In this document: piece after piece, positions 14,248 to 59,897 of the stretch
Layout of the letters: each line of letters starts with the position of its first letter
Position numbering within the stretch: position 1 is the first letter of the stretch
Origin: a bacterium
GTDB lineage: Bacteria > Patescibacteriota > Microgenomatia > Levybacterales > UBA12049
Direction: 5' to 3'
Length of the DNA stretch: 64,000 nt
NCBI GenBank assembly: GCA_021824155.1
Contig: JAKALN010000002.1
Coordinates: 15,775 to 79,774, forward strand
Made by a program: the position numbers and the translations under genes
The notes under the pieces: model-generated
The model's input: only the letters and a program-made list of their open reading frames with translations
What the model was told of the DNA's origin: nothing
Database searches by the model: none

Positions 14248-17200
14248 TCAAGAAGAAAAATGACTGAAAGCCGATATTTTCTCCGCAATAATTATCGGTT
14301 TATCGTTTTTTGTGTCAATTTTTCCGTTTACTACGATGACAGAGTCTTTTGAAAGAATAGTTTTGTACATTTCGAATACTCTTGGGAAAACTATGCATTC
14401 TGCCAATATTCCTTTTTCATCGCTTATAGTTACGAAGGCCATTTCACTTCCATTTTTCTTTGTAAATATTCTCCTTATGTTTTCTATGAGTCCGCCTATA
14501 GTGACTTGCGTGCCCTCGTTTTCTTCCGTTAAAAGTTCTATTTCGTGGGTAACGTGTTCCCTTATTTTTATTAAGCTTTCCATTTGCGGGTGGGAGGTTA
14601 AATAGAAACCCAAAAACTCTTTTTCAAAGGCCAGCTTTTCGTTTGGGGTAAAGTCTTCAATGTTTTTTGGGCTTACTGATAATTCCTCGTTTTCTTCGGA
14701 GTCTCCGAATAAACTTGTTTGTCCGGACTTAATATCTTTAGTTTTTTTATGGGATTTTTCTATTATCTCAGGATATTTTATTAGAAGGTTTGCTCTGTTT
14801 CCAAATGAATCCATCGCGCCTGCTTTTATTAAGCTTTCAACGGTTTTTTTGTTTACAGCGCCCAAATCAACTCTGGAACAAAGGTCTTCAAGGGTTTTAA
14901 AAGTGCCTTTTTCTCTCTGCTCTAAAATACTGTTTATAGCCGCTTCTCCGACATTTTTTATTGCGGAGAGACCGAATCTTATATTGGTGTTTTCTTCAAT
15001 TGTAAATTCGCTTCCGGATTTATTTATATCCGGAGGTAGGACAGGAACTTTTAACCTTCTGCATTCGGCAACGGCCTGAGCTATTTTTTCATTCTTTATA
15101 GGCCCCGAACTGCCTCTGGATTCTGCGGTTAAAAGGGCGGTCATAAATTCAACGGGAAAATGGGCCTTAAGATATGCAGTTCGAAATGCGATTGTTGCGT
15201 AGCAGGCCGCATGGGCTTTGCCAAATCCATATCCGGCAAAGGGTTCAAATAAAATCCATAGTCCTTCGGCGTTTTTTTTAGACATACCGTTTGTTACGCA
15301 TCCGTCAACAAATTTATCGTGCTGTTTTTTCATTTCGGCGGGGATTTTCTTTCCTACGGCTTTTCTAAGCTTGTCCGCTTCAAGCCAGGAATATCCGGCA
15401 ACGTTAATGGCAGTTAAGAGAAGATCGTCCTGGAAGGTTATAATACCGTACGATTCTTTTAGTACTTCTTTTAGCCTTGGATCAGGATATTTAATAAGGT
15501 TGGGATTGTTTTTTCTTCTTATAAACTCCGGGATATTAGCCATAGGTCCCGGCCTATATAAAGCTACCATTGCCTGAAGATCAAAAATAGAAGTAGGTTT
15601 TAATTCTTTAATATATCTTCTCATTCCGGAAGATTCAAGCTGGAATATTCCGGTAGTCTCTCCCGATGCCAAAAGATCGTATGTTTTTTTGTCTTCAAAA
15701 GAAATATTGGAAAAATCTATGTCTTTATTCTGGTTATCTTTTATAAACCTTAACGCTTCCTGTATAATGGTTAAATTCCTAAGTCCCAAGAAGTCTATCT
15801 TTAAAAGTCCCACACCATCTTCTCCGATACTGTACATATCGTATTGAGTGACAATTTTATCTCCGTTTGTTTCCCTTTGAAGCGGTGTGTATTCTGTTAA
15901 TTCTTTGTCTGCAATAACTACTCCGGCAGCGTGGACCGAAGCATGCCTGGCAACACCTTCTATTTTTTTTGCCAAATCCAAAAGTTTTTTTGTCTCGGAT
16001 TCGGTTTGATATACCGCACGAAGCTCCGGATTTTGTTCCAAAGCTTTTTCTATTGTCATGGCATGTCCCTGCCAGCCCAGGGGTATCATTTTTGATATCC
16101 TGTCTGGTACAGAATAGGGAAGTCCCATTACCCGTCCGGTATCCCTTACCGAGCCTCTTGCCTCGATTGTTCCGAAGGTTATAATTTGGGCTACTTTATC
16201 TCTTCCGTATTTATCGGTGACGTATTCTATTACTTCGTCTCTTCTGTTATCAGCAAAATCCAAATCAATATCGGGAGGTGACGGACGCATAGGGTTTAAA
16301 AATCTCTCAAAGGGGAGTTTAAAAAATAATGGGTCTATGTCCGAAATTCCAAGGGCATAGGATATTATTGAGCCTGCATTAGAACCTCTCCCCGGGCCTA
16401 CCGTAATTCCTTTGGATTTTGCCCAAATAACAAAGTCTGCGACTATTAAGATATAAGTTTCATACCCTTTTTTTAAAATTATTGAAAGTTCGTAATCTGT
16501 TCGGTCTCTTATTTCTTTGGTAATAGTTCCATACCTATTTTTTAATCCTTCTTCTACTTTTTCAGTCATATACTGGGCGGGGGTTTTACCTTGGGGTACA
16601 TCAAATTGGGGCATTATCCATTTTCCAAGCGTTATTTCCAAATTACACATATCGGCTATTTTGACCGTGTTTTCTATAGCTTCCGGTGTTTGAATAAAAA
16701 GTCCTGCCATTTCTTCCGGGCTTTTTATATAAAAGTCGGGTGAAGAAATCATAGACAATTTCCTGTTAGGAGTGTCTAATGTTGTTTGGGTTTGGATGCA
16801 TAGAAGCGTTTCCTGGCCCTCTGCGTCCGTATTGTAAACGTAATGGTTATCGTTGGTTGCAACTAATGGGAGTCCGAGTTTTTGGGAAAGTGCAATAATT
16901 TTTTCGTTTAAAATATCCTGGCCTTTTATATTTGTGTGTTTTTGAATTTCAAGGTAAAAATGGTCTTTTCCAAATATTTCCGATAAAGTTTGTGCTCTTT
17001 TTACCGCTGTTTCTTCCTGGTTATTTAATAATGGTTCGGAAACATACCCGTTAATACAAGCGCTTAAACAAATAATTCCTTCATGGTATTCGCGCAGAAG
17101 TTGTATATCTGTTCTAGGTTTATAATAGTAACCTTCAAGATTGGCTACGGATATAATTTTCATTAGATTTTTATATCCGGTCAGGTTTTGAGCCAAAAGC

Positions 17201-17469
17201 ACTAAATGGTTGGAATCTCCGTCCACACCCGCTTCTTTATCGTGCCTGGTCCTTTTGCTTATGTATATTTCGCATCCTATTATGGGTTTTATTCCGGCCT
17301 CCAAGCATGTTTTATAAAAAGTAATAGTCCCATACATGTTTCCATGGTCTGTTATTGCGAGAGCTTTCATGTTCAGTTCCTTAGCACGGTTAACCATGTC
17401 TTTTATTTTCGAAAGACCGTCTAAAAGTGAGAATTCGCTGTGATTATGAAGGTGTACAAAATCTGCCAT
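14248..17469 (-). CDS. dnaE: DNA polymerase III alpha subunit
   Basis: The N-terminal PHP domain '[18 protein letters not shown]...[12 protein letters not shown]' is present. The 1073 aa length and a polymerase core motif '[14 protein letters not shown]' fit DnaE. Confidence 0.95.
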
Positions 17470-30429: not shown

Positions 30430-30469
30430 ACGATTGTCAAGCTCCGAATTTTAAGATATAATATGCTTT

Positions 30470-30757
30470 ATGTTAAATACGGTTAATTTTGTTCCCGGTG
30501 ATATTATAAGAGTTCACCAAAAAATAAAAGAAGGCGAAAAAACGCGAATTCAGGTTTTTGAAGGTGTAGTTTTAAAAATTAAAGGAAGAACCGGAAATAA
30601 AACTTTTACGGTCAGAAAAAATGTAGGAACTGTGGCCGTCGAGAGAATATTTCCCGTTAATACTCCTAATATAGATAAGGTTGAAGTTAAGGGCCATCTT
30701 AAAGAAAAAACAAGAAGGGCGAAATTATATTTCCTTCGGGAAAAAAAGAACAACTAA
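30470..30757 (+). CDS. rplS: 50S ribosomal protein L19
   Basis: '[25 protein letters not shown]...[14 protein letters not shown]' is the L19 signature. Confidence 0.9.
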
Positions 30758-30767
30758 TTTTCACTAA

Positions 30768-31133
30768 ATGAGGATTTCTAATCCTACTGCCAAAAAAGGA
30801 GAGGATCTCGCCGCCAAATATCTTCAAAACCACGGTTACAAAATCATTGAGAGAAACTTCAGAAAAGGTTATGGAGAAATAGATATTATTTGCTTAAAAG
30901 ATAATACTTTGATTTTTGTTGAGGTAAAGACAAGAACTACAGAAGCTTTTGGGGGAGTAAGGGAATCAATATCCGGATTTAAAATCCGAAAACTGATTCA
31001 AACTGCGCAGTTCTATAAAATGATCCACTCAAATCTTCCGGAACTGCTTCGCATAGATGCAATATTAATAGACCTAAACGGAATAAATAAAGTTGAAAAT
31101 ATGGAACACATAGAGAACATCAGTCAATTTTAA
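30768..31133 (+). CDS. yraN: YraN/UPF0102 family endonuclease
   Basis: 'GEDLAAKYLQNHGYKIIERNFRKGYGEIDIICLKDNTLIFVEVKTR' is the YraN signature. Confidence 0.85.
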   Translation: MRISNPTAKKGEDLAAKYLQNHGYKIIERNFRKGYGEIDIICLKDNTLIFVEVKTRTTEAFGGVRESISGFKIRKLIQTAQFYKMIHSNLPELLRIDAILIDLNGINKVENMEHIENISQF

Positions 31134-42947: not shown

Positions 42948-44111
42948 TCAAATATTTAGAAGCCATTTGACAAAAATTACGGTTGCCCGGGAAACAGTAG
43001 CTGTGTAATTTCTTTTGGCATTATTGTCAAAACTTTTTGTAGGCAAAACCGGTTTTATAAAGTCTTGGGCAGAGGCTAAGGGATAATTGTTAATGTCCGG
43101 TTGTCCTTTTGGCTTTGGCAGCTTTTGCAGAGTAAGGTATTTTTGTGATTTATCCGAAGAACCATTAATAAACGAAAATTGCTCAAATGGCCCGGCGCCT
43201 GCGGTTAACAGAAAGGGTGTTACCGCAATAACGTCTTTATCGTTCCATATAGAGTTAAATGATTCTTTATAGTATATGGCCTGTACAGATTCGGGAATTT
43301 GGTTGTCGGTCCATCCGGTCTCTGTAATAAATACCGGGAGATTTTTATTTCCGAGATAAGAAGCAAGGTTTTCTTCATACTTAAAACTTGAAACACCCTC
43401 ATATCCGTAAGACAAAGGCGGTTGGGAAAAGCCGGGATTTGGATATGAATGGCTTGCAATCCCATCTATTTCTCCAAATATTCCGGGGACCGCAGCGTCC
43501 ATTTGTCTCATAAAAGTGTATTCATTTATCGATTGTCCGGAAACATTATCGGATGCATTATCCAATCCTGCAGAAAGAATAAAAAAATCATCACTTCTTT
43601 CTTTAAACGCATGAACTGCGTAATCTAGAATTCCGGCGTATTCAGACGCATTTGGAGCTCCTCCCCATTCATCCCCTCTGTTTGGCTCGTTATAGACGAT
43701 TACATACCTGTTTTTGGTAGGCCAGTTAAGAGAATTAAGAAAATTAGCAAAATCCAAAACGTTATAGTCGTTTGGTTTTTCCCAGGATGACTGGTTAAAA
43801 TAGTCTCCGTTTGTGGCAAGCCTGATGATCGGTATTAAATGAAATTTACGGCAGTCGTCCATAAAACTTTGCCATTTTTGAATGTTTAGATCCGTTGACT
43901 GAATGGGTATGGTGATATAGCCCCAGTCTCCGCCTGATGAGTTTACTAATTTTGCGGCGTCCTGAAGTTCGCTTGGAAACAGTATATGAATTCCGACTAT
44001 GTTATTTGGTTTCGAGCTTGGGTCATAAATAGCCTGTGCTTTAGGGGAAATTAATGAATAAGCTAAGACAGCAAAAAAAAGCATCAGGATAATCTTAATA
44101 AAGGATTTCAT
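42948..44111 (-). CDS. Secreted glycoside hydrolase, clan GH-A (GH5-like)
   Basis: It has an N-terminal signal peptide/TM 'KIILMLFFAVLAYSLISPKAQA'. 'IVYNEPN' is the NEP acid/base motif. 'FITETGW' is the nucleophile TE(T)G motif. Confidence 0.6.
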   Translation of the reverse strand: MKSFIKIILMLFFAVLAYSLISPKAQAIYDPSSKPNNIVGIHILFPSELQDAAKLVNSSGGDWGYITIPIQSTDLNIQKWQSFMDDCRKFHLIPIIRLATNGDYFNQSSWEKPNDYNVLDFANFLNSLNWPTKNRYVIVYNEPNRGDEWGGAPNASEYAGILDYAVHAFKERSDDFFILSAGLDNASDNVSGQSINEYTFMRQMDAAVPGIFGEIDGIASHSYPNPGFSQPPLSYGYEGVSSFKYEENLASYLGNKNLPVFITETGWTDNQIPESVQAIYYKESFNSIWNDKDVIAVTPFLLTAGAGPFEQFSFINGSSDKSQKYLTLQKLPKPKGQPDINNYPLASAQDFIKPVLPTKSFDNNAKRNYTATVSRATVIFVKWLLNI

Positions 44112-44149: not shown

Positions 44150-44872
44150 CTACCTTACAGCAGACCTGATGTTAATGTGTTTGAGATTTACAGACCAGTC
44201 GATTCCAACTATACCCTGCCAGTCTCCGTTAATCCAGGGAAGATCAAGGAAGAGGTCTTTTGTCATTGGGTCTTTTTGTAATCCCGCAGGTAATATTTTT
44301 TCCAATAAACCGTGGTTTATGGATACGGGAGCTTTCGCGGTTTGTGCAGTTGTATCCGATGTAAAGAAAATTTCTATAGTTTTTTGTCCTGTTCTATACA
44401 TTTCTCTGGGGTTCAATTCGGAACTTCTTTTTGTTGCAGGTGTTGCACCTGTTTCTCCAGCGCTTATAAATATTACATCTCCTGAATTCCGGTTGTATTT
44501 AACTGTCATCTCATTCTTTCCTATTTTTGCGGAAATAGATAAAGAATTTTGATGCCGGTCGGTAGAAATTTCAAAAAAGTCTCCTTCGTTTTTACCTAGT
44601 AATCTGAAATGCTCAAAAGTTGAGGGAAACTTTCCATTTGAATTAAAAACGATTTCTGCTTCTAAAGCTTTGTCTGCGCTTTCCGGGGAACTGGGAATTT
44701 CTCTGTAATATTGTCTGATTGTACGGCAATTGGGGTCGGAGCTGTCCGGCTGGCGGGCTACAAACAAGCGTTCCGGGATTATTGTAAGCCGTTCTTTTGC
44801 ATTGCCAAATGGCCTTTGGCTTAACACAAATTCGGTAAATGGGTCGTGTGTGGGAAATTCCTGTTCTGCCAT
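44150..44872 (-). CDS. Hypothetical protein with atypical composition for this window
   Basis: It is a 240 aa ORF with no TM helix or signal peptide. It is richer in E, R, G, A, P and S than its K-, I- and N-rich neighbours. It has a 'LDLPWINGDWQGIVGIDWS' C-terminal motif and no recognised family. Confidence 0.4.
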   Translation of the reverse strand: MAEQEFPTHDPFTEFVLSQRPFGNAKERLTIIPERLFVARQPDSSDPNCRTIRQYYREIPSSPESADKALEAEIVFNSNGKFPSTFEHFRLLGKNEGDFFEISTDRHQNSLSISAKIGKNEMTVKYNRNSGDVIFISAGETGATPATKRSSELNPREMYRTGQKTIEIFFTSDTTAQTAKAPVSINHGLLEKILPAGLQKDPMTKDLFLDLPWINGDWQGIVGIDWSVNLKHINIRSAVR

Positions 44873-44899
44873 AAGCGGATTATAGCATGTTCTTTAAAA

Positions 44900-44925
44900 T
44901 AGCCGCAAAAAAACCCCTTGCGGGG
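44900..44925. repeat. First copy of a 26-nt perfect direct repeat: TAGCCGCAAAAAAACCCCTTGCGGGG
   Basis: It is identical to 45082..45107. It contains two mutually exclusive hairpins, CCGCAA/TTGCGG or CCCC-TTGC-GGGG. Confidence 0.85.
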
Positions 44926-45081
44926 CGGAGTCGGTATCCCCGACGAGCCCGCTTGCAAACCAAAGGTTTGACAAGGGAGGCATGAGCAGTGTCAGCAGAC
45001 ACTGTGAATACATTTTAAAAAGACCCCGCAAGCAAAGTGAATTCTGAATAATTTGATGATTGGAAGCAAATGACTGCATTT

Positions 45082-45107
45082 TAGCCGCAAAAAAACCCCT
45101 TGCGGGG
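45082..45107. repeat. Second copy of the 26-nt direct repeat, followed by TCTTTTC, which gives a terminator-like shape on the plus strand
   Basis: It is identical to 44900..44925. Its 3' part, CTTGCGGGGTCTTTT, is the perfect reverse complement of AAAAGACCCCGCAAG at 45018..45032, giving a 15-bp long-range stem. Confidence 0.85.
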
Positions 45108-45270
45108 TCTTTTCGGGGTGACATATTGCTATGTCTCCTGCCTTTTGAAACTTACGTTTCTGAGGTATGAGCATTATATGCCTCAAAGCTACCTTTGTCA
45201 ACTAGGACTTTTTGTATCAGAGAATAGCAAAATTACAATATTACATTTTACATAGTATAATTATCGTAGT

Positions 45271-47700
45271 TTGAAGAAAACTATATTCAAAAAACAAACG
45301 ATTTTATCTTTTTTACTGATTGCTGCCGGAATAGTTTCTGTATTTTGGCAATTTTTCTTGAAGGGATTGTTTCTTTTCTCCGGCAATTATTTATTGGCGT
45401 GGTTTGAACCCTATAAAACAGAAAATTTTTCCGGAAATTTTATATCTTTAGCACACAAACCGATAGCGGAAGATACTTTCAAATCAATTTACCCTTTTAA
45501 AATTTTAGCTATTGATCTTATAAAAAATTTTCGGTTACCGCTTTGGAATCCATATAACGGAAGCGGTATGCCTCTTCTTGCAGCAATTAATCCGGGATAT
45601 TTTGATCCTTTTAATATTTTGTATTTTATATTTCCAAACTATTTTGCCTGGACGTTAATAATTATATTAGAAACTATATTGATAGGAATTTTTACTCTTT
45701 TTTATGCTAGGAGCTTAGGTTTGGGCAACAGAGCATCCATTTTGACAGCGGTAGTTTTTACTTTATCGGGAGCTGTTGTAACTAGAATTATATACTCGGA
45801 ATTTGCCCTTGGGATAGCTATGTTGCCGCTATCTTTGTATTTATTGGAAAAATATCAGGAAGAATTTCAAGCGAAATATCTTTTTATCTTATCTCTTGCC
45901 GCAGGTGTTCTTCTTTTATCGACGCACTTTCAATATTCAATTTATATTTTATTTTTTGTTTGTATTTATTGGGTATTAAGAACTAAAAATAAAATGTCAG
46001 TTAAAGGTATAAAAAAAATTGTCACGCCCTTATTGTTTATCATTTTGGGTTTAGGTTTTGCGTCTGTTCAGTTAGTTCCTGCAATCGAACTTTTTAAATA
46101 TGCAAACTTAAACCCTCAGTCTTCGTCTTTTATTTTTAATACAGCACTTATTCCGTTAAAGAATGTTATAACCCTTTTAGTTCCAAATTATTATGGCAGT
46201 CCGTCTACGTATAATTATTGGGGAACAGGAGATTATATAGAAACAGCAATGTACATAGGAATCATTCCTTCATTTTTTGCTTTTTTATCTCTATTTAAAA
46301 TTAAAGAAATTAAATATGCATTTTTTATAAAGTTTTATTTTTTTATCCTGTTATTTACTTTACTAATCTGTCTTAATCTTCCCTTTGTGACCTGGCTTTA
46401 TGTTTTGAATATTCCTCTTTTGTCGGTAGGTGTTCCAACAAGAATCTTTTTTATAACAACGTTCTCCCTGGCAATGCTTTCCGGGTTTGGGTACAAATAT
46501 TGGATAGAGTTATCAAGTCCAAAAAAACACCTGCTCATACCCATTCTCATATTCAGTTTTTTTATCGGGTTAATTTTTATAATTACAGTTTTAAATTTGA
46601 ATTCAAACTGTCCTGAGCTAATGAAAAATTGTCGCGTAACTTCTATAAGAAATACGATTATAGAGTTGGTGGGGTTTGCTGCAGCGCTTTTTTTAATAAT
46701 TGTTTATTGCTTTTTAAAATTAAATAAGAAAAAAGGAGGTTATGCTGCTTCTTTTATTGTTATCTTAATAGTTTACTTGTTGGGGTTTTATAATAGCTAT
46801 AAGTTTTTGCCGTTTTCTCCTAAAGAAACATTTTTCCCAGAAAATAACGTTATTAATTCTATAAAACAGGTGGCCGGAAATACGCGCATACTTGGAATAG
46901 GTAAAGCTAATATATTGCCGGATTTTGCCACATATTTTCATTTTTATGACCCTCAATACGTAAACCCTCTTTATATAAAGCGTTACGGAGAGCTTGTTAA
47001 TTTTGCTAACACCGGGGTTTTTCCTCCGCCCTTATTAAGAAGCGACGTAGATATTAAAGCGGACGCTACTCTAAGTGCAGCTTTAGAATTTCAGCGGGAC
47101 AGGTTAATGTCCATTTTAAATATTAATTATCTTATTTATAAAAAGGATGAAATCCCTGCGGATTATAAAAATAATGCGGTTGTATGGGAAAATGATAAAT
47201 GGTATATAATTCAACGCCCGAAAAGGCTTCCGCGGGCTTATTTTGTCAATAATATAAAGGTTATAGAAAAAGATAAAAATGAACTCAAAATGCTTTTCAG
47301 CCCATCTTTTGATCCTGCTACAACCGCCGTTGTGGAACAAAATTTTTCCGGATTGGCTCAAATTAATGGAGTAGAAAATCCGGGTAAAGCTGTAATAAAA
47401 AAATACAGTGAAAACAATGTGCTAATAGAAACAAGCTCTTCGCATAATAGTTTTCTTGTATTATCAGATAATTATTATCCGGGTTGGAAAGTTTTTATAG
47501 ATAAAAAAGAGGTCTCGGTATATAGAACAAATTATACGCTGCGCGGAATTGTAGTGCCTTCCGGAAAACATCTTGTATATTTTTCATACGACCCGCTTTC
47601 TTTTAAAGTAGGCTTATTGCTTTCATTTTTGTCCGGAGCTATATTTCTAATATTAATTTTGGGGGCTATGATAAAAAACGTTTTAAGTAAAAAGAAATAA
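45271..47700 (+). CDS. Large polytopic membrane protein, YfhO/GT-C-like family
   Basis: It is 809 aa. It has about 14 N-terminal TM helices, a large extracytoplasmic C-terminal domain and a final TM helix. The start is TTG. Confidence 0.45.
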   Translation: MKKTIFKKQTILSFLLIAAGIVSVFWQFFLKGLFLFSGNYLLAWFEPYKTENFSGNFISLAHKPIAEDTFKSIYPFKILAIDLIKNFRLPLWNPYNGSGMPLLAAINPGYFDPFNILYFIFPNYFAWTLIIILETILIGIFTLFYARSLGLGNRASILTAVVFTLSGAVVTRIIYSEFALGIAMLPLSLYLLEKYQEEFQAKYLFILSLAAGVLLLSTHFQYSIYILFFVCIYWVLRTKNKMSVKGIKKIVTPLLFIILGLGFASVQLVPAIELFKYANLNPQSSSFIFNTALIPLKNVITLLVPNYYGSPSTYNYWGTGDYIETAMYIGIIPSFFAFLSLFKIKEIKYAFFIKFYFFILLFTLLICLNLPFVTWLYVLNIPLLSVGVPTRIFFITTFSLAMLSGFGYKYWIELSSPKKHLLIPILIFSFFIGLIFIITVLNLNSNCPELMKNCRVTSIRNTIIELVGFAAALFLIIVYCFLKLNKKKGGYAASFIVILIVYLLGFYNSYKFLPFSPKETFFPENNVINSIKQVAGNTRILGIGKANILPDFATYFHFYDPQYVNPLYIKRYGELVNFANTGVFPPPLLRSDVDIKADATLSAALEFQRDRLMSILNINYLIYKKDEIPADYKNNAVVWENDKWYIIQRPKRLPRAYFVNNIKVIEKDKNELKMLFSPSFDPATTAVVEQNFSGLAQINGVENPGKAVIKKYSENNVLIETSSSHNSFLVLSDNYYPGWKVFIDKKEVSVYRTNYTLRGIVVPSGKHLVYFSYDPLSFKVGLLLSFLSGAIFLILILGAMIKNVLSKKK

Positions 47701-56878: not shown

Positions 56879-58236
56879 GCTGAATTCCTTTTTACCGTAT
56901 AAGAGTAGGGAAAATATAGAAAAGTTGCAGGAGCGTCATCTAAAAGGTATTTCTGAAAATCACTGTAAATTTGTATTCTGGACTGTAAATCTTCTGTTTG
57001 CCTTCCGTCTTCCAGAAGTTTGTCAATCCTTAAATTTTTGTAATTTGTGATGTTATTCATTTGTCCCGAATGCCAAAGGGTATATTGGTCGGGGTCTTTG
57101 GGAAGTCTGAATTCGCCAAGGAAAGCCTGAAAATTTGACGGCAAAGAATTTACAACTACGATTTTCGTATTTACTCCAATGTGCTTCCACGATTTAGATA
57201 ATTCATTGGCAACTCCCTGATATTGCGGGAGGGTTTGCAGTGTTATATTTATTTCCGCGCTTTGCGATGCTGTTTGGGACTGGGAAAGCAGTAATTTTGC
57301 GTGCGCGTAATCTTTTTGGTTGCTTGAAACCTGATACGACCACATATTCGGAGAAAACGGCCCATAATTTCTTTTTCCCTCTATAAAATTGTCGGGCGTT
57401 GCATAAGTAAGCGCTTCCCTTAGTCTTTTGTCGGATAAAACTTTATCCTGAGTGTTATAGAATAAAGTTACCAAATGCTGGTAGTCAATTGACTTTTCCG
57501 TTACGGCGTTTACAAAAGAATTAAACGTTGTGTTTTCAAAGTTTGCGTCATTTAAACCTAATACTTTGTCAACTTCCCCCAGTGCAAAAGCATTTTTTAA
57601 TGCATCTTGCGTAGGATAAAACTGGTAGGTAAGCGTGCTGTTTTTTATTTTAGTTGAGGCTAGTGTTATGGAATTTAAGAAGTCACCGTTTAAATCGAGC
57701 GACTCAACTTTATAGTCTCCAACACCTATCATTCCGTCTTTAAATATAGGTTCGGAAACAGTCACTAAAAAAGGCGAATAGGTCTCTTTTAACTTAAATA
57801 TTATTGTATATTTATCCGGCCTTTGTACGCTTACGTCTATAAAGTTATATCGGATTGAATCGGACGTAAGGTTATTTCCGTCCGTAAAATAAATATTATG
57901 CTTAAGGTTAAATATATAGGTTTTGCCATTGTCTTTAATACTCCAGCTTTTTGCTACGTCCGGTATAGGTTCGCTGTTTGAAGAAATTTGAGTCAAACCA
58001 TGCGAAAGGTTATCGATTACTTCCGGCGGGAGATTATCGGTAGTATAATCTCCGACGATTCCGATTACTTCATGTTGGTTAAAAGGAAGTCCGGGAACTA
58101 TTACGCCCCAACCGAAATATATTGCAAAAAATACCAGGAGGCCAAAAATAAATGAAGCAAAAATAGTTTTTCTCCATTTTTTGAAATAAGCCTTAATGAG
58201 CCAGAATATTAGTCTTCTTCTCCTTAGTAAAATCAT
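56869..58236 (-). CDS. ABC transporter substrate-binding protein, family 5 (peptide/nickel type), membrane-anchored
   Basis: It has an N-terminal TM helix. 'WSIKDNGKTYIFNLKHNIYFTDGNNLTSD' and 'DPDQYTLWHSGQ...YKNLRIDKLLEDGR' are typical SBP_bac_5 blocks. Confidence 0.55.
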   Translation of the reverse strand: MILLRRRRLIFWLIKAYFKKWRKTIFASFIFGLLVFFAIYFGWGVIVPGLPFNQHEVIGIVGDYTTDNLPPEVIDNLSHGLTQISSNSEPIPDVAKSWSIKDNGKTYIFNLKHNIYFTDGNNLTSDSIRYNFIDVSVQRPDKYTIIFKLKETYSPFLVTVSEPIFKDGMIGVGDYKVESLDLNGDFLNSITLASTKIKNSTLTYQFYPTQDALKNAFALGEVDKVLGLNDANFENTTFNSFVNAVTEKSIDYQHLVTLFYNTQDKVLSDKRLREALTYATPDNFIEGKRNYGPFSPNMWSYQVSSNQKDYAHAKLLLSQSQTASQSAEINITLQTLPQYQGVANELSKSWKHIGVNTKIVVVNSLPSNFQAFLGEFRLPKDPDQYTLWHSGQMNNITNYKNLRIDKLLEDGRQTEDLQSRIQIYSDFQKYLLDDAPATFLYFPYSYTVKRNSAQI

Positions 58237-59439: not shown

Positions 59440-59825
59440 GATATGAAAGTAACTATTACGGATTGGAGCAGGGCAATCAGGATAAATGCAAACAATGTAT
59501 TAAAGAATATTTTAGGTATTATAAATCCCGCAAAAGAATATCCGTTAAACAGGAATGCGGATATTGAAATACCGGGAACAAATACGGTAAGAAGATAAAA
59601 AATAATTGCATTGGTTAAAAATGAAAAAAGCCCCATTGTTACAAGGTTAAGCGGCAAAGATATTATGTTTAAGATGGGTTTCACAAGCATAAAAAGAAGG
59701 GAAAGCGCAATTCCTCCGGCGATAACTGTAATAAGCCCCCCGGAAATTTTTAGGGCCGGAACGTACTGTGCAAGAAGAAAAATAGATAAGGAATTTACAA
59801 AAATACTCCTTATAAAAGACTTCAT
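59421..59825 (-). CDS. DUF360/Phage_holin_4_2 (YvlD-like) small membrane protein
   Basis: It is 134 aa with four predicted TM helices. It has 'LITVIAGGIALSLLFMLVKPIL...LVTMGLFSFLTNAIIFYLLTVFVPGISI'. Confidence 0.65.
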   Translation of the reverse strand: MKSFIRSIFVNSLSIFLLAQYVPALKISGGLITVIAGGIALSLLFMLVKPILNIISLPLNLVTMGLFSFLTNAIIFYLLTVFVPGISISAFLFNGYSFAGFIIPKIFFNTLFAFILIALLQSVIVTFISWLMKK

Positions 59826-59897
59826 ATTTGTATATAAATGCTATCAGATATAGATTTGTCTTGCAATATATTCTCCTCAGAGGTATATTATTGGAAT

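Follow-up and report, generated by a model that had tools for sequence, protein, structure and literature searches.

Background

Five kinds of described system come close to the element treated here: trans-encoded small RNAs, bidirectional Rho-independent terminators, the CsrB, RsmY and RsmZ RNAs, the duplications found at tRNA and tmRNA genes, and attenuation leaders and riboswitches. Ordinary terminators drift in sequence with their structure kept. RNAs of the CsrB type carry multiple A(N)GGA motifs, mostly in hairpin loops, which are bound by CsrA or RsmA. Integrases leave duplicated 3' ends (attL and attR) at tRNA and tmRNA genes. We compared with these systems the gap between two genes at 44873-45270 of a 64-kb stretch of DNA (contig JAKALN010000002.1), which is called the window throughout. 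Its host belongs to the Patescibacteria (Candidate Phyla Radiation), which make up a large share of bacterial diversity, have small genomes and are mostly not culturable alone. Our results indicate that this gap very likely holds a stand-alone gene on the minus strand for a small non-coding RNA of about 78 nucleotides (nt), conserved in a group of Patescibacteria.

A first-pass annotation, made from the letters of the window, had described the gap as its largest non-coding one, GC-rich and dense in hairpins, with a perfect direct repeat of 26 nt and a long-range stem of 15 bp, and had offered it as a candidate small RNA or riboregulatory leader. All of the listed sequence features were found again. 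The 26-mer, TAGCCGCAAAAAAACCCCTTGCGGGG on the plus strand, is at 44900-44925 and 45082-45107, the two copies being 100% identical and 182 bp apart, and the 15-nt inverted repeat (45018-45032 and 45099-45113) is perfect. The three local hairpins at 44930-44944, 44956-44970 and 44987-45004 are present in the sequence and also in the minimum free energy fold of 44903-45008. The GC content is 0.46-0.50 across 44700-45099 as against about 0.27-0.44 nearby. The flanks are also as described, a minus-strand open reading frame (ORF) of 240 amino acids (aa) at 44150-44872 without a Pfam match and a plus-strand ORF of the YfhO family at 45271-47700 (PF09586, E = 7.5e-19). The statement on size holds approximately: when only ORFs of 150 aa or more are considered, the gaps 30430-31119 and 59440-59837 equal or exceed this one, and both of them hold smaller ORFs. 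It is in the interpretation that we differ. A candidate small RNA gene is present, but it takes up only 45166-45089 on the minus strand, whereas the hairpin had been read on the plus strand. The features that had been emphasised, namely the first copy of the 26-mer, the 15-bp stem and the GC-rich hairpins, are real but lie inside or at a spacer of 156 nt that has no counterpart in relatives. Only the minus strand gives the region a coherent reading. On the other strand the GC-rich repeat resembled a riboswitch-like element, and it is actually the 3' end of the RNA gene.

Promoter and parts of the predicted RNA

The features of the predicted gene are as follows.

45173..45201, minus strand: promoter of the RNA, TTGACA (45201-45196), 17 nt, TATAAT (45178-45173), 12/12 positions of the sigma-70 consensus
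45089..45166, minus strand: predicted small non-coding RNA of about 78 nt, covariance-model match 45168-45082
45141..45165, minus strand: hairpin 1, with a CCU/AGG outer stem, a CA/AAA internal loop, a GAAAC-GUAA-GUUUC inner stem and a GNRA loop
45136..45140, minus strand: single-stranded linker CAGGA, in which AGGA is invariant and unpaired in folds
45120..45135, minus strand: hairpin 2, GACAUA-GCAA-UAUGUC, with varying stem sequence and pairing kept
45085..45118, minus strand: hairpin 3, terminator T2, potentially bidirectional, CCCCGAAAAGACCCC-GCAA-GGGGUUUUUUUGCGG, containing copy 2 of the 26-mer (45082-45107)

The promoter at 45201-45173 is the sole one in the 64 kb that agrees with the sigma-70 consensus at all 12 positions, and a promoter of the form TTGAC(A/G)-17-TA(T/A/C)A(A/T/C)T recurs at an unchanged distance in each of the 18 homologs whose upstream sequence is available. 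Because the interval between the -10 box and a conserved ACC is a constant 6-7 nt, we infer that transcription starts near 45166. The 3' end of the RNA is predicted to lie in the U7 tract 45095-45089 behind hairpin 3. The RNA of the window scores 107 bits (E = 1.8e-21) with covariance model R1 and 102 bits with R2. It folds with -31.9 kcal/mol (z = -6.1), and its homolog at locus L005 folds with -36.0 kcal/mol (z = -6.1). The conserved element spans 88 positions and comprises three hairpins, whose loops are of the GNRA type in almost all variants; for hairpin 2 this holds in 19 of 20. The sequence NAGGA(A/G)A is present in 20/20.

Homologs of the RNA and support for its structure

For comparison 117 related loci were fetched, and these are given L-numbers; L001-L004 are from the same species as the window, and the contigs of this species are identical to the window across the gap. 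The variants of the RNA in related loci of Patescibacteria number 20, of which 19 are full and one is truncated. They are found at L005 and L018 (same sequence), L019, L034-L037 and 13 of 80 metagenome loci. Further copies of the RNA were retrieved through the loci of homologs of a 387-aa protein encoded downstream, that is, the retrieval was anchored on a protein. A second covariance model revealed no loci beyond those found by the first. When 185,579 species genomes were scanned with an 18-mer there were 22 matches and only two of them are real; this collection apparently does not include the species of the window as its own sequence gave no match. Nothing was found in metagenomes of the Joint Genome Institute with a degenerate pattern that fixed CTCAG and had purine/pyrimidine stems; the sister clade has CTTCAG and GATAC. 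At L005, which carries a homolog of the gene next to the RNA in the window (gene X), the promoter, a 36-nt block identical to the window and the terminator are kept, and hairpin 2 has a different sequence and is still paired.

Pairs were counted in an alignment of 19 sequences. Standard pairs fill 94.7% of the pair cells as against 34-58% when the partners are slid by 1-3 columns, changes on both sides occur at eight pairs, and 0/500 shuffles reach the observed covariation score. In hairpin 1 an A-U pair is replaced by a U-A pair (GAAAC/GUUUC versus GAUAC/GUAUC) and the outer pair is CG, UA or UG. In hairpin 2 both partners vary at five of the six modelled pairs. RNAalifold likewise predicts hairpins 1 and 3 and, of hairpin 2, the apical part. 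The first-pass annotation had proposed a covariation analysis in relatives, and its outcome is that compensatory changes in the alignment support the predicted hairpins 1 and 2. The G.U cells, 56 of 528 as counted from the pair table, would be mismatches on the plus strand; since these pairs fit only the minus strand, the strand is fixed.

The mean pairwise identity among the 19 variants is 93% for hairpin 3 with its tail, 78% for hairpin 1 and 49% for hairpin 2, and hairpin 3 keeps this level across lineages whose neighbouring proteins share only about 55-70% identity. Logan contigs from one sample (L004 1-26; L007 and L008 at position 1) break exactly at the conserved blocks of the RNA, and the likely explanation is that two co-occurring species share these stretches so that the assembly graph branches there. 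Elsewhere in the window there is a weak covariance-model match at 57762-57847 on the minus strand (19.4 bits, E about 0.17), inside an ORF of 455 aa, which is probably noise.

The 26-mer as part of the terminator

On the minus strand the 26-mer module reads CCCCGCAAGGGG, U7 and GCGGCTA, a GC hairpin whose loop is of the GNRA type, with a U-tract behind it. The 26-mer as given for the plus strand is the reverse complement of the loop, the 3' arm, the U-tract and the conserved GCGGCTA tail of hairpin 3. Each copy had earlier been taken for a switch that could fold in two mutually exclusive ways; instead the module is a piece of the intrinsic terminator of the RNA. On the minus strand both copies show CCCC-GCAA-GGGG and then U7, and in 20/20 loci 75-80 nt separate the hairpin from the conserved promoter upstream. 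Hairpin 3 is preceded by an A-tract that mirrors the U-tract and can be extended to about 15 pairs; because of this A-tract T2 could terminate transcription in both directions.

A palindromic, GC-rich hairpin with a run of T, occurring twice, also looks like a repetitive extragenic palindrome (REP) or a miniature inverted-repeat transposable element (MITE), or like the standard terminator of the genome. If this were the case, then it should be scattered, and the first-pass annotation had itself named many copies in the genome as the finding that would speak against its proposal. The two copies are the sole matches to the 26-mer in the 64-kb window with up to three mismatches (0/100 shuffles gave two), and the core CCCCGCAAGGGG occurs there only twice. 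In about 556 kb of related loci CCCCGNAAGGGG is present only as the 3' hairpin of the RNA, plus the extra copy in the species of the window. Since the hairpin is found in these 556 kb only at the 3' end of the RNA, it is neither a dispersed element nor a generic terminator, and the explanation by a generic repeat can almost be dismissed in the sequence examined. By the identities given above, hairpin 3 is the most conserved module of the predicted RNA.

The second terminator copy and the spacer

Downstream of the predicted RNA the window has the following features.

44926..45081, minus strand: species-specific spacer of 156 nt between the terminator copies, identical in four contigs of the species
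45018..45032, minus strand: a 15-nt piece of the hairpin 3 5' arm in inverted orientation (minus-strand reading CUUGCGGGGUCUUUU), matching 45099-45113 perfectly as an inverted repeat
45012..45041, minus strand: weak promoter-like site TTCACT-18-TAAAAT, 9/12, without comparative support, which could start a transcript near 45005
44930..45004, minus strand: three GC-rich hairpins (45004-44987, 44970-44956 extended, 44944-44930), the body of a possible second RNA
44900..44925, minus strand: copy 1 of the 26-mer, terminator T1, CCCCGCAAGGGG, U7 and GCGGCTA, called by the terminator scan
44879..44887, minus strand: extended -10 promoter TGcTATAAT of gene X, 6 nt before the ATG (44872-44870), with TTGCGG of copy 1 18 nt upstream of the -10 box
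44150..44872, minus strand: gene X, for a 240-aa hypothetical protein, downstream of the RNA

Among the related loci searched, the second terminator copy is found only in the species of the window, and L005, for example, does not have it. T1 has no upstream A-tract and therefore is one-directional. Together with its TTTT flank, copy 1 is identical over 30-31 nt to the 3' ends of the RNAs of the obg-linked loci L058, L086, L047, L068, L097 and L102, and the AAAT flank of copy 2 is of the type of other lineages. The inverted 15-mer matches the hairpin 3 arm of the RNAs of other species as well. When the spacer was compared by BLAST with the 117 fetched loci it matched only the same species (L001-L004) beyond the terminator module, and because it has no counterpart in relatives no covariation test is possible there.

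Copy 1 is probably a species-specific duplication of the terminator, placed 156 nt downstream and directly before the promoter of gene X. It would most likely stop read-through from the very strong RNA promoter into gene X, and its TTGCGG may serve as the -35 element of that gene. Such a back-up terminator has a rival that leaves the RNA upstream untouched, namely that the left half of the gap, from about 45005 to 44907 on the minus strand, is a second, lineage-specific small RNA that ends at T1. The fold of 44903-45008, three hairpins and the terminator, has -44.1 kcal/mol (z = -4.0), a promoter-like site with 9/12 matches stands at a fitting distance, the GC content is near 0.5-0.6 in a genome of roughly 36% GC, and a strong constraint on a shared module could explain why exactly these 26-31 nt are identical. 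On the other hand, the body of such an RNA has no homolog in any fetched locus and so neither covariation nor conservation, its promoter is weak compared to that of the family, and the z-score is the same on the plus strand, therefore the structure signal is not strand-specific. We regard a second RNA as possible but doubtful. By eye, CCUCCCUU in the spacer (44968-44975, minus strand) could pair with AAGGCAGG in the predicted RNA (45137-45144, minus strand) in seven pairs around a C.C mismatch, and through these sequences the possible second RNA could interact with the first.

If there are two small RNAs with unrelated bodies (45166-45089 and about 45005-44907) that share hairpin 3, then this hairpin (ACCCCGAAAAGACCCCGCAAGGGGUUUUUUU with GCGGCUA) might be more than a terminator, namely a functional module with sequence specificity, either a docking site for a dedicated RNA-binding protein or a target of recombination. 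We consider this rather unlikely; if true, it would mean a modular small-RNA system in Patescibacteria.

The two 26-mers could instead be scars of the attL/attR kind, left by a mobile element that integrated site-specifically in the 3' end of the RNA gene and decayed to 156 nt. They are a perfect direct repeat of the 3' end of this gene, the 30-31 nt of copy 1 that recur at the RNA 3' ends of other lineages include the TTTT flank, between the copies there is a 15-nt piece of the same hairpin in inverted orientation, and what follows the RNA differs between lineages. In addition, about 70 nt of unrelated sequence are inserted at the same GCG/G position in L080. However, the repeats are only 156 nt apart with no integrase or other mobile gene there, a 23-mer is absent from 2.9 million viral contigs, the region of the gap has no match in phage or plasmid collections, and no strain free of the insert is among the same-species contigs examined. 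Taken together these findings make integration unlikely. The insertion in L080 (515-600) stands between the GCG of the tail and the stop codon of obg, is unrelated to the spacer of the window, and is not present in the closest relative, L102; it is the second lineage-specific insertion at the same spot.

Neighbouring genes and the question of a leader

The order of genes downstream of the RNA falls into three arrangements, which are listed together with the genes concerned.

RNA, 50-95 nt, 387-aa gene: 5 loci
RNA, fast-evolving gene X (as in the window), 387-aa gene: 5 loci
RNA facing a convergent obg, then an rRNA-methyltransferase-like gene, then the 387-aa gene: 10 loci
42948-44111, minus strand: gene of the 387-aa GH5-like protein in the window
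45232..45261, plus strand: promoter-like site ATTACA-18-TATAAT of the YfhO gene, 10/12; coding sequence 45271-47700
Convergent obg with its TAG stop in the tail of the RNA: L047 626-1585, L052 569-1528, L058 96-1061, L062 310-1269, L068 552-1517, L086 56-1015, L102 529-1494

The first-pass annotation had considered a riboregulatory leader. For YfhO this does not hold, as this gene points away from the RNA and is served by a separate -10 box, 9 nt ahead of its start. The other form of the proposal is that the RNA is a cis-acting leader (attenuator or riboswitch) whose terminator controls read-through into gene X and the GH5-like 387-aa gene. The order of promoter, conserved 5' domain, terminator and gene is that of a leader, in 10/20 loci the following gene shares the strand of the RNA, and the RNA is always upstream of the same GH5-like gene. 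In the other 10/20 homologous loci, however, the next gene is the convergent obg and the GH5-like gene follows about 2 kb further, behind another gene. Moreover, in the sequences inspected gene X and the GH5-like gene each have a conserved box of their own, of the -10 or the extended -10 type, at 6-12 nt from the ATG, without a Shine-Dalgarno site. By inspection no conserved antiterminator was seen that pairs with the 5' arm of the terminator, hairpin 2 being variable and hairpin 3 fixed, and no riboswitch or leader of Rfam matches. Because the convergent obg is next in half of the loci and the inspected same-strand genes have their own promoters, we conclude that the RNA is not a leader, and a role as such is very unlikely. 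The stop codon of obg is the CTA of the GCGGCTA tail in 7/10 obg loci; since it is inside the tail of the RNA, one hairpin terminates both genes. The window itself has no obg.

Gene X has no match in Pfam or NCBIfam and a single homolog in a search of 5.8 billion proteins. It is 53% identical to the copy at L005 and 32% to that at L037, as compared to 66-82% for the neighbours. The clear homologs are at L005 8001-8714 and L037 3220-3960, and the versions at L019 2587-3420 (minus strand) and L040 658-1494 are only faintly related. The arrangement TGnTATAAT, 6 nt and ATG is also present at L005, and the other homologs have promoters of their own, TTGACA-17-TATAAT at L037 and TTGTAA-17-TATACT at L019. 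Shine-Dalgarno sites are rare in the window, being found in 8 of its 57 ORFs of at least 150 aa, and in 15 of the 57 a TAnnnT box lies no more than 16 nt upstream of the start (for example 44879-44872, and upstream of 42948-44111 and 14248-17469). This suggests that leaderless mRNAs, or mRNAs with a very short leader, may be widespread in this genome.

The 387-aa GH5-like protein is strongly conserved and has more than 6000 homologs, mostly in Patescibacteria, with Levyibacteriota among those named. It has no family match at threshold and no sequence match in the PDB. Of 20 members of its family, six weakly match the GH5 cellulase family PF00150 and two match PF11790, and it carries the motifs NEP and ITETGW, as clan GH-A glycoside hydrolases typically do. 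At 66 of 80 loci no RNA lies within 2.5 kb of its gene. Divergently upstream of the RNA there is, in seven loci (L035 3182-3766 and L037 2332-2898, both on the minus strand, and L036, L038, L041, L047 and L062), a gene for a zinc-ribbon protein of about 190 aa with three repeated units, which is 83-93% identical between loci. Loci that lack the RNA, L066 among them, have this gene too; in the window YfhO and a methyltransferase take its place. As the zinc-ribbon and GH5-like genes both occur without the RNA, no functional partner can be inferred among the neighbours. Just upstream of the RNA promoter, transposase genes of the IS1595 family or fragments of their N-terminal part are found at four independent loci (L034 1544-2422, L036 2850-3755, L052 1-316 and L102 1-266), which hints that this is a preferred region of insertion.

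Family membership, coding potential and possible function

The search of Rfam that had been proposed for this gap was carried out with the 4227 models of Rfam 15, which include the RNA of the signal recognition particle (SRP), 6S RNA, tmRNA, RNase P, riboswitches and leaders. No described family matches the RNA, as there was no match on the minus strand at 45082-45168 with E values up to 10. At the gathering thresholds only tRNAs were found in the window, five homologous loci gave no match at the RNA with E values up to 5, and ARAGORN found no tRNA or tmRNA in the gap. SRP RNA was also considered by eye. Helix 8 of SRP RNA is marked by the loop nucleotides AGCA and GG; these are missing from hairpin 1, in spite of its GNRA loop and internal loop, and with no SRP match in Rfam this candidate was rejected. 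In the literature we found no description of such an RNA, and none for Patescibacteria beyond the universal non-coding RNAs.

It could be argued that the gap codes for a small protein, for example by the 76-aa ORF at 44894-45124 on the minus strand, since the window has AGGAGA 9 nt before the ATG that opens these 76 codons. This reading is scarcely credible. After the AGGA there is no start codon in 7/19 homologs, apart from a TTG inside the terminator, therefore the RNA element is not protein-coding. At L005 the sole candidate start is in another frame relative to the conserved sequence. The insertions and deletions in hairpin 2 are not multiples of three and so shift the frame, Pfam gives no match, and gene callers placed no gene at the gap in L001-L003.

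Our best guess, which we hold tentatively, is that the RNA would act in trans and be expressed constitutively from its strong promoter. In such a model the AGGA linker, standing between two stable hairpins, would be presented to a protein or to a C/U-rich RNA partner, and the invariant hairpin 3 would be a second, sequence-specific recognition module besides being the terminator. The search for complements of the seed in the window gave 14 matches with up to three mismatches where 7.5 are expected, and the only match without a mismatch falls on the RNA gene. Among duplexes with start regions in the window none is more stable than -14.6 kcal/mol, which is no better than with shuffled seeds (mean best -14.3).

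Several points weigh against the proposal of a stand-alone RNA gene. No target or partner was found, the seed search in the window being no better than chance, and the ends of the RNA and its abundance are deduced from sequence. The alignment was fitted to the model and is of 19 related sequences, for which reason the apparent support from covariation is inflated, and hairpin 3, being invariant, is uninformative for covariation. Nor does the proposal account for the invariance of hairpin 3 and of the GCGG past the U-tract. A simple terminator scan called T1 and not T2, likely because the extension of the stem pairs the run of T with the upstream A-tract. Lastly, the RNA is always in the same neighbourhood upstream of the GH5-like gene, and it may have a cis role in some lineages.

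These points notwithstanding, the RNA is a concrete candidate for a small RNA: no promoter in the 64 kb is stronger, compensatory changes support the structure, and the RNA is conserved where neighbouring proteins have diverged to about 55% identity. As a covariance model it can be used in the annotation of genomes and in searches of metatranscriptomes. A search for a binding partner or a recombination activity might start from the terminator, given its invariance and the duplication of exactly this module in one species. The significance is moderate: the candidate is testable and has an invariant 3' module, and nothing here overturns expectations.

Comparison with known systems

What attenuation leaders and riboswitches have in common with this locus is a promoter followed by a conserved, structured 5' domain and a terminator, with a same-strand gene next in half of the loci. 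The locus differs from them in that no conserved antiterminator was seen, a convergent gene follows in the other half, the inspected downstream genes have promoters of their own, and Rfam gives no match. The att duplications at tRNA and tmRNA genes resemble the window in that the last 26-31 nt of an RNA gene recur as a perfect direct repeat and the DNA between the copies looks foreign and differs in composition; unlike in those, the insert is 156 nt without an integrase, and there is no attP in viral, phage and plasmid collections.

With CsrB, RsmY and RsmZ the RNA shares an invariant exposed AGGA, with C, G or U before its A, and presumably abundance, the likeness being one of resemblance only. 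The RNA of the window has a single GGA (45138-45136), which is in a linker and not in a hairpin loop, and a sponge for CsrA/RsmA, which would have multiple GGA motifs, was rejected on this ground; a CsrA gene was not found either, though no search aimed at it was made. Bidirectional Rho-independent terminators have, like hairpin 3, a CCCC/GGGG stem with a GCAA loop, an A-tract upstream and U7 downstream, and in seven relatives the obg stop is in the tail; what sets hairpin 3 apart from them is its 93% identity across lineages, with conservation that reaches past the U-tract into GCGGCTA.

The closest likeness is to trans-encoded small RNAs. As in these, there is a consensus promoter of its own, a length of about 78 nt, three hairpins, a conserved unpaired stretch and an end formed by a GC hairpin and a U-tract, and the RNA is non-coding with a location that is conserved within the lineage. 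In contrast to them conservation is much higher in its terminator hairpin than in the internal one, the reverse of what is usual, it belongs to no described family of Rfam 15, and its host is of a lineage of Patescibacteria. The predicted RNA is thus outside any Rfam 15 family and in other respects resembles the common trans-encoded small RNAs, with a terminator that is intrinsic and potentially bidirectional.

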